Assembly: GCA_964291675.2 (NCBI GenBank)
Contig: OZ219866.1
Span: 160,001 to 224,000 of the forward strand
Reading direction: 5' to 3'
DNA: 64,000 nt
DNA from: Alphaproteobacteria bacterium
GTDB taxonomy: Bacteria; Pseudomonadota; Alphaproteobacteria; MPNO01
Shown here: positions 30,726 to 35,229 of the stretch, in pieces
Layout of the letters: the number at the start of each line of letters is the position of its first letter
How positions within the stretch are numbered: position 1 is the stretch's first letter
Program-made: the position numbers and the translations under genes
Notes under the pieces: model-generated
The model's database searches: none
Told to the model about the DNA's origin: nothing
What the model saw: the letters and a program-made list of their open reading frames with translations, nothing else

Positions 30726-31669
30726 GAGGCCCGGCGCAGGCCCGGATCGGCTGGCTGGCCGGGCAGATCCCGCTGCTCGCGCTGGTCGTGCTCTGCCTGG
30801 TCGCGAGCGCGCTGTCAGACCGGTTCTTCTCGCCGATCAACATCAACAACGTGCTGATGCAGGGCGCGGTCATGACGGTGATCACCATCGGCATGACCTA
30901 TGTGATCGTCTGCGGCGGGTTCGACCTCAGCGTCGGCTCGGTGGTGGCGCTGTCGGGCTGCATCGCGGCCATGGCGATGCTGGAGGCCGGCATCGTCGCG
31001 GGGGTGGCCGCCGGCGTCGCGGTCGGCGCCCTGGTCGGGCTGGTCAACGGGCTCGTCGTGACCCGGCTCGACGTGAACCCGTTCATCGCCACGCTCGGCA
31101 CCATGGTGCTGTTCCGCGGCGTCACCTTCCTGATCACCGGCGGGCGGCCGATCGTCGGCGAGGAGGGGCTGCCGGAGCTCTTTCTCGACTTCGCCATCGA
31201 ACGCCTGTTCGGCATCCCCTTCCTGGTCTGGCTGCCGGTGCTCCTGTTCGGCGTGTTCCACTGGCTGCTGCACCGCACGGCCTACGGAATCCGCGTCTTC
31301 GCCACCGGCGGCAACACCGAGGCGGCCTATCTCGCGGGCGTCGCGGTGGGGCGTGTGCGGGCCTCGGCCTATGTCTGGTGCGGCGCGCTCGCCGGGCTCG
31401 CCGGGGTGATGCTGGCGTCCCGGCTGCAATCGGGCCAGCCGACGGCGGGCGCGTTCTACGAGCTCACCGCGATCGCCGCCGTGGTGCTCGGCGGCGCCTC
31501 GCTGTTCGGCGGCGAGGGGAAGCTCTACAAGTCGATCATCGGGGTGTTCATCATGGTGGTGCTGGCGAATGCGCTCAACCTCGCCAACGTCCACTCCTAC
31601 TGGCAGCAGGTGGCGATCGGCCTGGTGATCGTCGCCGCCGCCGCCGCCGACCGCCTGCGCCGCCGCTGA
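30722..31669 (+). CDS. Sugar-type ABC transporter permease (RbsC-like)
   Basis: GGFDLSVG, PFIATLG, GGN.EAA, YELTAIAAVVLGG. Confidence 0.9.
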   Translation: MRGPAQARIGWLAGQIPLLALVVLCLVASALSDRFFSPININNVLMQGAVMTVITIGMTYVIVCGGFDLSVGSVVALSGCIAAMAMLEAGIVAGVAAGVAVGALVGLVNGLVVTRLDVNPFIATLGTMVLFRGVTFLITGGRPIVGEEGLPELFLDFAIERLFGIPFLVWLPVLLFGVFHWLLHRTAYGIRVFATGGNTEAAYLAGVAVGRVRASAYVWCGALAGLAGVMLASRLQSGQPTAGAFYELTAIAAVVLGGASLFGGEGKLYKSIIGVFIMVVLANALNLANVHSYWQQVAIGLVIVAAAAADRLRRR

Positions 31670-31695
31670 CGGGCGCCGCGGGCCGAGAGCGGCCG

Positions 31696-32319
31696 CTACC
31701 GAACGAGTCCCTGCTTCCGCGCCATCTCCATGGCGAGGTTTTCCGAAGCATCGAGGAACGCGAAGAACACGCTCAAATCGTCGATGTAGTGCTGCCATTG
31801 CCCGTCGGCGGCATGCTCCCAAGCGTACCGCTTTTTCCACAACTCCGCGTCTTCATCCATGTAGGCGAAGACGTCCTTCAGGCCTTGCAAGCGCCGGTTG
31901 GCGGGGCCTTCGGGGATCGCGGGATCGTCGGTGCTCAGAAACGCGACCAGATCGAACGGATGATCGGTGGAGGCCTTCGCGAACAGACGCTCCAGCTCGG
32001 CTGCCGCAGAGACCCCGCGCGCGTCGAGCCGGTCGTAGAGCCCGGCGAGACGATGCCCGTCGGGGCCCTCCGGGGGCCTGACGCCAACCAGGTGCAGCAG
32101 GCATTTCAGCCTGAGCTCCAGCGCGATCGCGAGATTGAAATGGCTGGCCGTCTTGAGCGATTCCCAGACGGTGTGCGACGGCCAGCCCGATGCGCCTCCG
32201 ACCGGCGAAAGGTCTCCGCCCCTGACCCGCAGCCGGGCGATTTCACGCTCGATCAGCGAGGCGGACTGGCGGAATGCCCGGGCGTCGCCGATCAGCTTCA
32301 GGAACCGCACGCCGTTCAT
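31696..32319 (-). CDS. HEPN-like domain protein
   Basis: ALELRLK..GHRL..KRY pattern matches HEPN ExxLK / HxL / RY. Confidence 0.55.
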   Translation of the reverse strand: MNGVRFLKLIGDARAFRQSASLIEREIARLRVRGGDLSPVGGASGWPSHTVWESLKTASHFNLAIALELRLKCLLHLVGVRPPEGPDGHRLAGLYDRLDARGVSAAAELERLFAKASTDHPFDLVAFLSTDDPAIPEGPANRRLQGLKDVFAYMDEDAELWKKRYAWEHAADGQWQHYIDDLSVFFAFLDASENLAMEMARKQGLVR

Positions 32320-32349: not shown

Positions 32350-32799
32350 TTAGCGATACTCCGACGCGGGCCTTGCCGGGCGCGTCGCGGAATTCCCGCT
32401 CAACACGTAGAGATCGGGGACCGGCAGCGCGAAGCCGCCGCTCCAGCCGGTCGCGCCATCCCCTTCCGGCACGCCCGGCCCCCGAACGGCCCCCGAGGGG
32501 CGAAGCCGGAGGCCGAGCGCGTTCATCACGCTGACAACGGTCGCGAAACCGGGGTTCCCGTCGCCGGAGAGCGCCTTGTACAGGCTTTCCCTGCCCAACC
32601 CGGTCTTCGCCGCGACGGCGGTCATTCCCCTGGATCGCGCGATATCCCCGAGCGCCGCCGCGATGATGCGCGGATCGCCGTCCTCGAACGCCGCTTCCAG
32701 GTAGGCCACGATGTCATCGAGGTCTTCGAGATAGTCCGCCGCATCCCAGGGGAGCGTGCTCGCCCTTGCGGCGGAAGCGCGGGTTCGCGCATCGTTCAT
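32350..32799 (-). CDS. Addiction-module antidote (HI1420-like HTH) with atypical C-terminal extension
   Basis: WDAADYL, ALGDIARSRGMT, GRESLYKALS.DGNP. Confidence 0.85.
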   Translation of the reverse strand: MNDARTRASAARASTLPWDAADYLEDLDDIVAYLEAAFEDGDPRIIAAALGDIARSRGMTAVAAKTGLGRESLYKALSGDGNPGFATVVSVMNALGLRLRPSGAVRGPGVPEGDGATGWSGGFALPVPDLYVLSGNSATRPARPASEYR

Positions 32800-33014
32800 C
32801 GATCTTCCCCTTCCGCCAACGCCTGCGCGAGGTCGCGCGCTCTCTCGATGTCCTGCCGCCGGGTTCGCTTGTCGCCGCCGACCACCGCCCGCGCATCTCC
32901 CGGATTGCCCAGCGCCAACCGATTGATGCGGATGAGGATCCGCGCCTTCGCCCGCCTGTCGCGAAGTCTCCGAAACCAGCTGTCGTACGCATCGGTCTGG
33001 CGAACTTCGGCCAC
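32796..33014 (-). pseudogene. Addiction-module killer (HI1419/RelE-like) with in-frame core deletion
   Basis: W..LRD..AKARI..RINRLALGNPGD is joined to GGDK; the ELRI..GPGYRVY core is absent. Confidence 0.75.
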
Positions 33015-33023
33015 CGGCCGGTT

Positions 33024-33039
33024 GTATCCTACAAGATAC
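33024..33039. promoter_or_regulatory. Putative TA operator GTATC-N6-GATAC
   Basis: Inverted repeat 10 bp upstream of the killer start. Confidence 0.45.
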
Positions 33040-33114
33040 GCCTCGGCAACGCTGCTGCAATCGGCGAAAGGCCCCGACGGGCTGGCGGAAACGGAGCCGC
33101 GTCCTCCAAGTGCA

Positions 33115-33214
33115 GTTGACGGTGGGAGCTCCCTGATGGTTCAGGGCAGGGTCTCAAAAGCCCGAAGACACGCGATCCCCATTGCGTCGGGTTCGATTCC
33201 CGCTACCTCAACCG
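33115..33214 (+). ncRNA. Irregular tRNA-like RNA (Sec/allo-tRNA-like scaffold, anticodon CAA)
   Basis: 6-bp D stem with TGGT loop, CT-CAA-AA anticodon loop, 7-bp variable arm, 4-bp T stem with TTCGATT, bulged acceptor stem of 8-10 bp. Confidence 0.7.
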
Positions 33215-33218
33215 AACT

Positions 33219-33452
33219 CTAAGTCTTTTCATAATTGGCAGATCGCAGTTCTCGAATCTCTACTCGTATCCCTTTAAGATCGGATCGCATGTCTCTTGTA
33301 ATCTCTTTGAGATCGTTTCGGATGTCTTCAGCGATCTGCTTGAGAGTTTCTCGATCGCTGTTGACTCGTCCTACCCATATTCCGATCACGACGAGGATCG
33401 CGCCAACCGAGACCGCCCCGGCGAGCTTGGCCGCTTCCTGCCAGAACGCCAT
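33219..33452 (-). CDS. Small membrane-anchored coiled-coil protein, low GC
   Basis: One TM segment (AVSVGAILVVIGIWV), then heptad-like DIRNDLKEITRDMRSDLKGIR. Confidence 0.6.
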   Translation of the reverse strand: MAFWQEAAKLAGAVSVGAILVVIGIWVGRVNSDRETLKQIAEDIRNDLKEITRDMRSDLKGIRVEIRELRSANYEKT

Positions 33453-33612
33453 ACCCAACCTCTACTCTTCGAAACTGCTTCGAGAATCAACCTAGTATAC
33501 TCTGAGTTGAGTTCGTGGGCGAAGCAAGACCACAACGCCCAGGGGCCAACGAGTATCCTCATCCCGAACCGGTCCCGCAGGGGCCGCATCGAAAGACGGG
33601 CGCCGCGCTGCC

Positions 33613-35229
33613 ATGACGGATTACGACGGCATCGTGCTCGGCGGCGGGCATAACGGGCTGATCCTCCAGGCCTACGCGGCGCGCGCCGGGCTCAGGGTGC
33701 TGACCATCGAGCGCCGGCCGGTGGTCGGCGGCGGGCTGGAGACCGCGGAGGATCCGCGCCATCCGGGCTTTCTGCACAACACGCACGGCTTCTTCCAGCG
33801 CGCGCTGACCGGGATGCCGTGGTATCGCGACCTGGAGATCGCCCGCCACGGCGCGCGCTATATCGAGCCCGAGCTCAACGTGGCGATGATGCTGGGCGAC
33901 GGCCGGTCGCTGCAATGGTGGACCGATTTCGAACGCACCCATGCCTCGTTCGCCGCGCTGTCGAAGCGGGACGCCGCCACGCTCAAGCGCTGGCACGACG
34001 CGTTCCGCCCGATCGTGCGCGACATCCTGGTGCCCGAGGCGACGTCGCCGCCCTTGCCGGCGGCCGAGCGCCGCGCGCTGCTCGAACGCAGCGCCGCCGG
34101 GCGCCGGCTGCTGGAGGCGAGCGCGCTGTCGCCGCTCGAATTCGTCGAGAGCGAGTTCACCCACCCGACCATCCAGGCGGGGCTCCTGTTCTTCAACGGG
34201 CTGCGCGAGGTCGATCTCAGGGTGCGCGGCTTCGGCCACCACATCGCCGCGCTCCTCGCGAGCACCGCGAAGGCGCAGATGACCGTGGGCGGTGCGCAGA
34301 TGCTGGCCGTCGCGCTGGAGCGCGCGGTGCGCGAGGCGGGCGGCGACATAATGGTGGCGACGGAGCCGCGCCGCATCCTGGTCGAGCGGGGCCGGGCGGT
34401 GGGCGTCGAGACCCAAGCGGGCGAGACCTTCACGGCGCGCCGCTTCGTCGCCTCCTCGCTCAACCCGCACCAGACCTTCCTCGACCTGCTGGAGCCGGCG
34501 CATTTGCCGGACGCGTGGCGGCGCAAGGTCGAGAGCTTCGCCTACAACCTGATCGCGCCGCTGTTCGCGCTCAACCTCAACCTCGCCGAGCCGCCGCGCT
34601 ACAGCGCCGCCGATGCCGACCCCGCGCTGGAAAAACCCTTCATGGTCATCATGGGGCTCGAACACGTCTCGCAGTACCCTGAGATCGTGCGCCACCACGA
34701 GGCCGGGACCATCCCGCCGACGGTGATGTGGGGCTGCTGCCCGACCCAGTTCGACCCCTCGCAGGCGCCGCCCGGCCGGCACACCGCCTTCATGTGGGAG
34801 AAGCTGCCCTACCGGCTCGGCGGCGATCCGGCGAGCTGGGACGCGGCGAAGGACGCCCACGGCGCCGCGATGCTCGATCTCTGGCGCCGCCACGCCCCCA
34901 ACCTCGCCGACGCGGTGATCGACCGCTTCGCGCGCAGCCCGCTCGACGTCGAGCGCACGCTCCCCAACATGCGCCACGGCGACCTGCTGGTCGGCGCCTT
35001 CACCAACGGCCAGATCGGCGCCGACCGGCCGTTCCCGGGCGCCGGGCGCTACCGCGCCCATCTCGACGGTCTCTATCTGTGCGGCTCGGCCTCGCACCCG
35101 GGCGGCAACGTCACCGGCCTGCCGGGCTACAACGCGGCCCAGGTGCTGCTCGCCGATCTCGGCATCGAGGCCGGCTGGGCGCCGCCCCCGATCGCCGACC
35201 GGCTGGCCGCGCTGGGGGATGCGGAGTAG
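33613..35229 (+). CDS. Phytoene dehydrogenase-like FAD oxidoreductase (COG1233)
   Basis: GGGHNGL, GLYLCG..SHPGGNVTG.PGYNAA. Confidence 0.88.
   Translation: MTDYDGIVLGGGHNGLILQAYAARAGLRVLTIERRPVVGGGLETAEDPRHPGFLHNTHGFFQRALTGMPWYRDLEIARHGARYIEPELNVAMMLGDGRSLQWWTDFERTHASFAALSKRDAATLKRWHDAFRPIVRDILVPEATSPPLPAAERRALLERSAAGRRLLEASALSPLEFVESEFTHPTIQAGLLFFNGLREVDLRVRGFGHHIAALLASTAKAQMTVGGAQMLAVALERAVREAGGDIMVATEPRRILVERGRAVGVETQAGETFTARRFVASSLNPHQTFLDLLEPAHLPDAWRRKVESFAYNLIAPLFALNLNLAEPPRYSAADADPALEKPFMVIMGLEHVSQYPEIVRHHEAGTIPPTVMWGCCPTQFDPSQAPPGRHTAFMWEKLPYRLGGDPASWDAAKDAHGAAMLDLWRRHAPNLADAVIDRFARSPLDVERTLPNMRHGDLLVGAFTNGQIGADRPFPGAGRYRAHLDGLYLCGSASHPGGNVTGLPGYNAAQVLLADLGIEAGWAPPPIADRLAALGDAE

Follow-up and report, generated by a model that had tools for sequence, protein, structure and literature searches.

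An irregular allo-tRNA-like sequence bearing a CAA (Leu) anticodon, probably an inactive relic, in inserted DNA of a high-GC proteobacterium

The closest described counterparts of the sequence studied here are the allo-tRNAs. According to their published description, these molecules combine a long D stem closed by a tetraloop and a long variable (V) arm with an 8/4 or 9/3 branch (PMC5389517); their anticodons are sense anticodons, and toxin-antitoxin genes are frequent neighbours (Mukai et al. 2017, PMC5389517). Most of the allo-tRNAs covered by that account carry the discriminator G73 or U73, which is the basis of their serine identity, and those bearing Leu anticodons inserted serine in Escherichia coli (PMC5389517). 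Irregular forms are described as well. Stems are destabilised in the allo-tRNA(UAU) species and in a pseudogene, all of which stand beside transposon or toxin-antitoxin genes (PMC5389517), and the six converted allo-tRNA(UAU) variants reported there showed no suppression in E. coli (PMC5389517; likewise the review PMC7609411).

We analysed a 64-kb stretch of genomic DNA (the window) from a bacterium in which a first-pass annotation had proposed an irregular tRNA-like RNA of Sec/allo-tRNA type. The element occupies positions 33115 to 33214 on the plus strand, as defined by its sequence, its pair list and a match to the Rfam tRNA-Sec model. The arms claimed for it, with their coordinates, are all present, and 32 of 32 proposed cloverleaf pairs are standard. 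The 5′ strand of the acceptor (33117–33125, with C33120 bulged) forms eight pairs with the 3′ strand (33203–33210), and a 5-nt connector, GAGCT (33126–33130), leads to a D arm with a 6-bp stem and a TGGT tetraloop (CCCTGA-TGGT-TCAGGG, 33131–33146). The anticodon arm (GGGT-CTCAAAA-GCCC, 33149–33163) presents the CAA anticodon at 33155–33157. Its stem has four standard pairs (33149–33152 with 33160–33163) beside an unpaired A33148, and a fifth pair, C33147–G33164, is possible only across a bulge at that A. A 6-nt spacer separates the anticodon arm from the V arm (ACGCGAT-CCCC-ATTGCGT, 33170–33187; 7 bp including one G-T pair, with a 4-nt loop), which directly abuts the T arm (0 nt between them; CGGG-TTCGATT-CCCG, 33188–33202, 4-bp stem). 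The 3′ end consists of A33211 followed by CCG (33212–33214). The anticodon loop is canonical (7 nt, with U33, A37 and A38) and the same as that of the host's tRNA-Leu(CAA), the T loop is canonical as well and the D loop is UGGU.

Two registers compete for the acceptor. The bulged register yields 8 to 10 acceptor pairs, the last two through T33116–A33211 and G33115–C33212, at the cost of the C33120 bulge and the 5-nt connector. The Sec-type register, with its strand at 33121–33128 and a 2-nt connector, pairs at five of eight positions (−25.7 kcal/mol). Five acceptor pairs lie outside the Sec-type register, and a chance origin is unlikely (a few per cent by our own estimate). The cloverleaf has a folding energy of −35.9 kcal/mol, 4.1 kcal/mol above the minimum-energy fold (−40.0 kcal/mol), which retains the acceptor and the D arm and fuses the remaining arms. 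The element's folding z-score is −2.14, and 5 of 200 shuffles fold equally well; for scale, a true tRNA-Sec has a z-score of −2.44 and a true tRNA-Ser one of −1.63. Folding energy does not discriminate the element from true tRNAs.

Standard tools pass over the element, as the first-pass annotation had expected. ARAGORN calls two tRNAs in the window, neither at 33115–33214, and Rfam at gathering scores returns four matches there, none at the element. The general tRNA model RF00005 (cut-off 29 bits), searched against the genome at E ≤ 10, has 47 matches, none at the element; its 44 true matches score at least 50.1 bits. The sole Rfam family that matches is tRNA-Sec, RF01852, which aligns to 33124–33207 with 34.8 bits, below the gathering score of 47, at E-values of 2.7e-5 for a 451-nt stretch and 6.8e-5 for the whole genome. 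The D arm aligns to this model at full posterior probability. Searched across the genome at E ≤ 1, RF01852 places the element among 19 matches in all, and the remaining 18 coincide with ARAGORN tRNA genes. We also built a covariance model (R1) from the element sequence alone, which matched five tRNA-Ser genes and one chance sequence in the genomes of the order, and two true tRNA-Sec genes and one tRNA-Ser gene in 150 sampled genomes of the class. Because the tRNA-Sec model matches with 34.8 bits, and because the best matches of the element-built model are true tRNA-Sec and tRNA-Ser genes, these comparisons indicate true descent from a tRNA; the element combines the Sec/allo-tRNA shape with a CAA anticodon, which upholds the scaffold proposed for it.

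The host genome already carries a normal tRNA-Sec (76.7 bits with RF01852) and a normal tRNA-Leu(CAA). The element shares 62 of about 98 positions with the former, a likeness not exceeding that to tRNA-Ser or tRNA-Tyr, and 61 with the latter, again nothing special; across the long-arm host tRNAs (Ser, Sec, Tyr and Leu) the count runs from 57 to 67. We rejected a recent copy of either gene as its source, since BLAST against the genome gives no match and the identity does not exceed that to other long-arm tRNAs. Searches of the genome, the family, the order and phage/plasmid records gave no match pointing to a decayed 7/5 tRNA-Leu or an attR fragment, both of which the first-pass annotation had raised. 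Among canonical tRNA features, the element has no RF00005 match, no 7/5 branch and no encoded CCA; it ends in CCG, and CCA is encoded in 45 of the 45 Rfam-confirmed tRNA genes of the genome. A consensus scan of positions 32600–33700 found 0 promoter-like and 0 terminator-like sites, which is a weak test in a 70% GC, alphaproteobacterium-like genome.

Other tRNA genes of the genome and genus were recorded alongside. ARAGORN lists 55 tRNA genes in the genome, 45 of them Rfam-confirmed; the 10 extra calls (72–96 nt, very GC-rich, mostly without the T-loop motif) look like false positives typical of high-GC DNA. Outside the window, at C2:3219672-3219759 (plus strand), a tRNA scoring 50.8 bits with RF00005 has a Leu-like body (long V arm, A73, Leu-type D arm) and the anticodon loop TTACCAA, with anticodon ACC (Gly; not normally used in bacteria). 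The gene encodes its CCA, has a promoter-like TTGACC box and is followed by a GC hairpin, and it sits between a 410-aa integrase-like ORF and a low-GC island (0.44–0.55). This may be a tRNA carried by the island, with an anticodon at odds with its identity; the element is identical to it at 51 positions. In the congener G011, a second complete tRNA-Sec gene (C313:8565-8660; L043 4070-4161, minus strand) shares about 80% identity with the gene typical of the genus; its 9-kb contig belongs to an assembly with 9% contamination, so it may stem from another organism. This match was rejected as a partial att-type copy, as it is a complete tRNA-Sec gene on a small contig and has no bearing on the element.

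We compared the element with the published allo-tRNAs (Mukai et al. 2017, NAR 45:2776, PMC5389517) by description rather than by sequence; what the first-pass annotation stated of them agrees with that paper. The likeness lies in a 12-bp branch that can be drawn as 8 + 4, a long D stem with a tetraloop, a long V arm and a Leu sense anticodon, and further in the adjoining toxin-antitoxin pair in mobile DNA, the stem irregularities and detection by the tRNA-Sec model alone. The differences begin with the acceptor. Unlike in allo-tRNAs, the 8/4 branch can be drawn only with C33120 bulged and with the 5-nt connector, and a 9/3 drawing is impossible. The anticodon stem is short, whereas theirs is longer than canonical, and the discriminator is A33211 (8/4 drawing) or C (extended stem) instead of G or U, a feature that is not strictly defining. 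The host is a 70% GC, alphaproteobacterial-type proteobacterium, whereas theirs are Acidobacteria, and the toxin-antitoxin block is unlinked to the element by locus comparison (see below). The 6-bp D stem with its tetraloop and the 7-bp V arm are shared with allo-tRNAs, but because the long anticodon stem and the G/U discriminator are absent, and because the 8/4 rule needs a bulge, the element is allo-tRNA-like rather than a member of that group.

A comparison with tRNA-Sec (selC) is similarly mixed. In the class sample, true alphaproteobacterial tRNA-Sec genes are the top hits of R1. The element resembles it in the 6-bp D stem with a YGGU loop, in a possible 8-nt acceptor strand, in the long V arm and in the A36-A37-A38 context of the anticodon loop. 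It departs from it in its score (34.8 bits versus the cut-off of 47 and the 76.7 bits of the host's own gene), in its anticodon (CAA, not UCA), in the lack of CCA, in an anticodon stem of 4 bp versus 6 bp, and in a T stem of 4 bp versus 5 bp, with T33187 and C33203 not pairing with each other and no 8/5 branch.

tRNA genes and tRNA fragments stand at the junctions of integrated genomic islands, and the locus shares some of this arrangement. An ABC permease gene (ending at 31669) and an FAD-type oxidoreductase gene (starting at 33613) flank 1.9 kb of DNA here. This insert is missing in 11 of 11 congeners, where the same two genes are directly joined with about 16 intergenic nucleotides. A 13-bp direct repeat, GACGGGCGCCGCG, frames it at 31668–31680 and 33595–33607 (both on the plus strand), and these are the only two exact copies in the window; the empty site of the congeners has one copy and no tRNA gene. 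The right 0.5 kb of the insert comprises the element, a low-GC stretch with a gene for a 77-aa protein and, at the right insert end, one REP-like repeat unit of the host genome (33556–33597; dozens of genome BLAST matches, 15 copies aligned). The GC content falls from about 0.62–0.66 to 0.53 exactly at the element's 3′ end, in a genome of about 0.70. As in island-junction tRNAs, then, foreign low-GC DNA starts exactly at the element's 3′ end and the insert ends carry a direct repeat. Unlike those, the locus has no integrase (none in or beside the insert by ORF and family searches), no duplicated tRNA 3′ segment (none in the 64-kb window and no convincing one in the genome) and no resident tRNA at the empty site. 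The REP-like unit, about 40 nt long (CCTCATCC...GCAGGGGCC...ATCGA), occurs genome-wide, in places as tandem arrays (for example, C2:3381349-3381546).

The left 1.4 kb of the insert, from 31673 to about 33052, is a three-gene block read on the minus strand. It contains a RelE/ParE-family toxin remnant of HI1419 type (32796–33014, 72 aa), an intact HTH antidote gene of HI1420 type (32350–32799; PF21716, TIGR02684) whose start overlaps the toxin stop (ATGA), and a 207-aa ORF of no known family (31696–32319) that moves with the pair. Aligned to the 102-aa copy of congener G009, the toxin has an in-frame internal deletion of 30 residues; the G009 copy matches TIGR02683 and PF05973, and the window copy matches no family. 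A palindrome upstream of the toxin gene (GTATC-N6-GATAC, 33024–33039) may be a candidate operator. The block is found elsewhere in the chromosomes of G009, G016 (twice) and, in part, G010, at 70–88% identity; homology among the blocks stops just past the palindrome, at about 33052, and no tRNA-like sequence stands beside the other blocks at these four loci. The left junction follows a motif ending in GCGCCGCG in two genomes (block loci: the window, L022 2195-3662, L023, L024 and L025), and the 1.4-kb unit looks like a small site-preferring mobile unit without its own recombinase. A separate contig from the sponge-metagenome run X5 carries the block with an undeleted toxin and an unlike flank beyond 33080. 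In that relative the block and the element are therefore unlinked. Taken together, the loci identify the block as a separate, decaying mobile unit.

On the other side of the element, and convergent with it, lies the small gene (33219–33452, minus strand; 77 aa by ORF and translation). The gap from the element's end (33214) to the stop codon (33219–33221) is 4 nt. The encoded protein begins with a membrane helix at its N terminus and continues as a charged, coiled-coil-like tail, and a GAGG box stands 7–8 nt ahead of the ATG, in DNA with a local GC content of about 0.53. The frame is intact in five of five members of its 90% cluster (90–95% identity). The protein matches no Pfam, NCBIfam or PADLOC family and has no relatives outside its own 90% cluster, and none were found in viral contigs; its nearest look-alikes by features are small phage proteins, which is weak evidence.

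By BLAST, the element is single-copy in its genome and has no match in the 19 other genomes of the family. A 0.5-kb piece containing it has none in the 77 other genomes of the order, the element covariance model likewise finds none in those 77, and it finds none in the 150 sampled genomes of the class. BLAST against phage and plasmid records returned just two matches, one due to chance and one of 31 nt between the T arm and a phage tRNA-Met. An exact-pattern scan (D-arm motif, gap, T-loop motif) gave 0 matches in viral contigs; its four matches in genome contigs and two in metagenome contigs were rejected, as all six are ordinary tRNA genes or leaders matched by chance.

Relatives of the locus were found in sponge metagenomes. 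Contigs 88–98% identical to parts of 32600–33700 come from four sponge-metagenome runs (X2–X5) of four studies, so that close relatives of the host bacterium appear to live in or on sponges; the public runs matching the stretch include no RNA run. The element and about 0.4–0.5 kb of low-GC DNA are found together in such contigs at about 90% identity. A 725-nt contig of X5 aligns to 33098–33666 (569 nt) with 58 differences and 4 gaps, and therefore the element, the 77-aa gene and the oxidoreductase start are colinear in this relative and the left flank differs: its first 158 nt are unlike the window, and homology starts at 33098, 17 nt before the element. A degenerate third copy of the 13-bp repeat near 33090–33101, where this homology starts, would fit two successive insertions, which we offer as a suggestion; no copy within two mismatches was found there.

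The X5 contig also allows the element's rate of change to be judged. Among the 17 of the 58 differences that are listed, at least four substitutions and at least one insertion fall within the element's 100 nt. The listed substitutions are at 33137 (D loop), 33144 (D stem, partner C33133), 33148 (the unpaired A) and 33151 (anticodon stem, partner C33161), and the listed insertion is one extra C in the V loop. The element has thus changed at about the rate of its flanks, at no fewer than two stem positions (G33144 and G33151) among others. The true tRNA-Sec across 11 congeners is 100% identical in three, 99% in six, 98% in one and 93% in one, and the flanking genes in those congeners are 85–95% identical. 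In two contigs of run X4 the homology breaks off within the T arm, at 33189 and 33199. To the left of 33189, one of them has 16 unlike bases that can again fold into a hairpin directly adjoining the T stem, which could mean that a V arm has been kept by selection.

We consider it most likely, and hold with moderate confidence, that the element is an inactive relic of an allo-tRNA-type gene rather than a working translation adaptor. An allo-type or Sec-type tRNA gene would have arrived with about 0.5 kb of foreign low-GC, possibly phage-like DNA, and would no longer work, or would never have worked, as a tRNA in this host, presumably being either not made or not used. Its adjacency to the toxin-antitoxin pair would go back to two separate insertions at a single short GC-rich site and would have no functional basis, because the block is mobile elsewhere, the linkage is absent in X5 and the site is empty in the congeners.

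Several lines of evidence point to such a relic. The build is irregular, with a bulged acceptor, a 5-nt connector, a 4-pair anticodon stem, an unpaired A and a 6-nt spacer, and the score stays below the Rfam cut-off (34.8 versus 47) with no RF00005 match. CCG replaces CCA, against 45 of 45 tRNA genes of the genome with CCA, and the consensus scan found no promoter-like or terminator-like site, nor is an upstream region shared in X5. The distribution is that of an orphan, the insert being absent from 11 of 11 congeners. Stems drift in the relatives seen, whereas the true tRNA-Sec is 98–100% identical in 10 of 11 congeners, and the surroundings decay, as the 30-residue toxin deletion illustrates. 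There is also precedent in the irregular allo-tRNA(UAU) species, for which the published account describes no suppression (PMC5389517).

Other observations argue against an inactive relic. In the genome copy, 32 of 32 proposed pairs are standard, five acceptor pairs lie outside the Sec-type register, the anticodon and T loops are canonical and the z-score is like those of true tRNAs; the X4 hairpin beside the T stem could reflect selection on the V arm. The X5 differences listed are 17 of 58, and compensating changes may lie among the others. The consensus promoter scan is weak at 70% GC, and CCA could be added enzymatically. Finally, the 77-aa gene is intact in five of five variants, so the cassette is not wholly dead.

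It is possible, if somewhat improbable on the sequence evidence, that the element is instead an expressed, working non-canonical RNA, either a UUG-reading allo-type tRNA charged with Ser, Leu or another amino acid, or a tRNA-shaped regulator or decoy, forming a cassette with the 77-aa gene. Every stem is intact in the genome copy, the anticodon and T loops are canonical, and A33211 followed by CC resembles a discriminator with a degraded CCA. The element and the small gene have been kept together beside the same oxidoreductase gene in the sponge-metagenome contigs (five protein variants), the X4 variant retains hairpin potential at the place of the V arm, and allo-tRNAs with Leu anticodons are described as inserting serine in E. 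coli (PMC5389517). However, the discriminator would be A or C, when most allo-tRNAs in that account have G or U (PMC5389517), and the locus shows no promoter or terminator by consensus scan and no CCA. The bulged acceptor and the 5-nt connector would be expected to impair its recognition by RNase P, synthetase and EF-Tu, no fewer than two stem positions differ in the X5 copy, and a normal tRNA-Leu(CAA) is already in the genome. No flank pairs with the anticodon arm beyond what shuffles achieve (142, 159 and 182 of 300 do equally well), and an antisense lock on that arm is absent. The missense suppressor, decoy or regulator that the first-pass annotation had suggested gained no support, and several results lean towards a relic.

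A bolder version, which we regard as unlikely, would make the element a living member of a small new family of allo-type, tRNA-shaped RNAs in sponge-associated proteobacteria, forming a two-part cassette with the 77-aa gene. Such a family would have to tolerate a bulged acceptor and a long connector, its V arm would be hypervariable, as in X4, and its members might misread UUG or mimic a tRNA so as to control the neighbouring gene.

Some integrases cross over within the T arm of tRNAs, and the element could have a role at the level of DNA: the part from the T loop to the 3′ end would mark where an integrative element that targets tRNAs joined or crossed over, and the low-GC DNA would be its stump. 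The GC break from about 0.62–0.66 to 0.53 exactly at the 3′ end, the two X4 contigs that break inside the T arm (33189 and 33199) and the 13-bp direct repeat bounding the insert would all fit such a junction. We nevertheless find it doubtful: no integrase lies within the insert or next to it, the 3′ part does not recur in the 64-kb window, nor convincingly in the genome, the unoccupied site of the 11 congeners lacks a tRNA gene, hence a resident target, and the X5 contig has the whole element, not merely its 3′ part.

Because the two are convergent and the element ends (33214) only 4 nt short of the stop codon (33219–33221), read-through would also overlap the 3′ end of the 77-aa gene's mRNA, as in a cis-antisense partner acting in the manner of type I toxin-antitoxin systems. 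The small protein with one membrane helix and the lasting pairing of element and gene in relatives are compatible with such a role. Yet it is very unlikely: the consensus scan found no promoter on either strand, the role needs no tRNA shape, typical type I toxins are unlike a 77-aa protein with a long charged tail, and we know of no precedent for a tRNA-shaped cis-antisense partner. That GC-rich DNA produced the cloverleaf by chance, without any tRNA ancestry, is scarcely credible: the element's score does lie under the Rfam gathering cut-off and ARAGORN does over-call here (10 of 55 tRNA calls without Rfam confirmation), but the E-value is 6.8e-5 per genome, real tRNA genes account for the remaining 18 matches of the search, and the T loop is perfect, the anticodon loop has U33 and A37 and the D loop reads UGGU.

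Irregular sequences of allo-tRNA type were known from mobile DNA before; the present one comes from a high-GC proteobacterium that has relatives in sponge metagenomes. If the element is a relic, as we favour, it would be a further irregular allo-tRNA-like sequence riding mobile DNA and missed by annotation, now in a high-GC proteobacterium. In that case the locus would also illustrate that adjacency to toxin-antitoxin genes can come from repeated insertion at one short site, not from common function. Should it prove to be both transcribed and aminoacylated, the element would represent a naturally occurring tRNA whose acceptor is bulged and whose anticodon competes with the normal tRNA-Leu, and it would be of interest to mistranslation biology and tRNA engineering.
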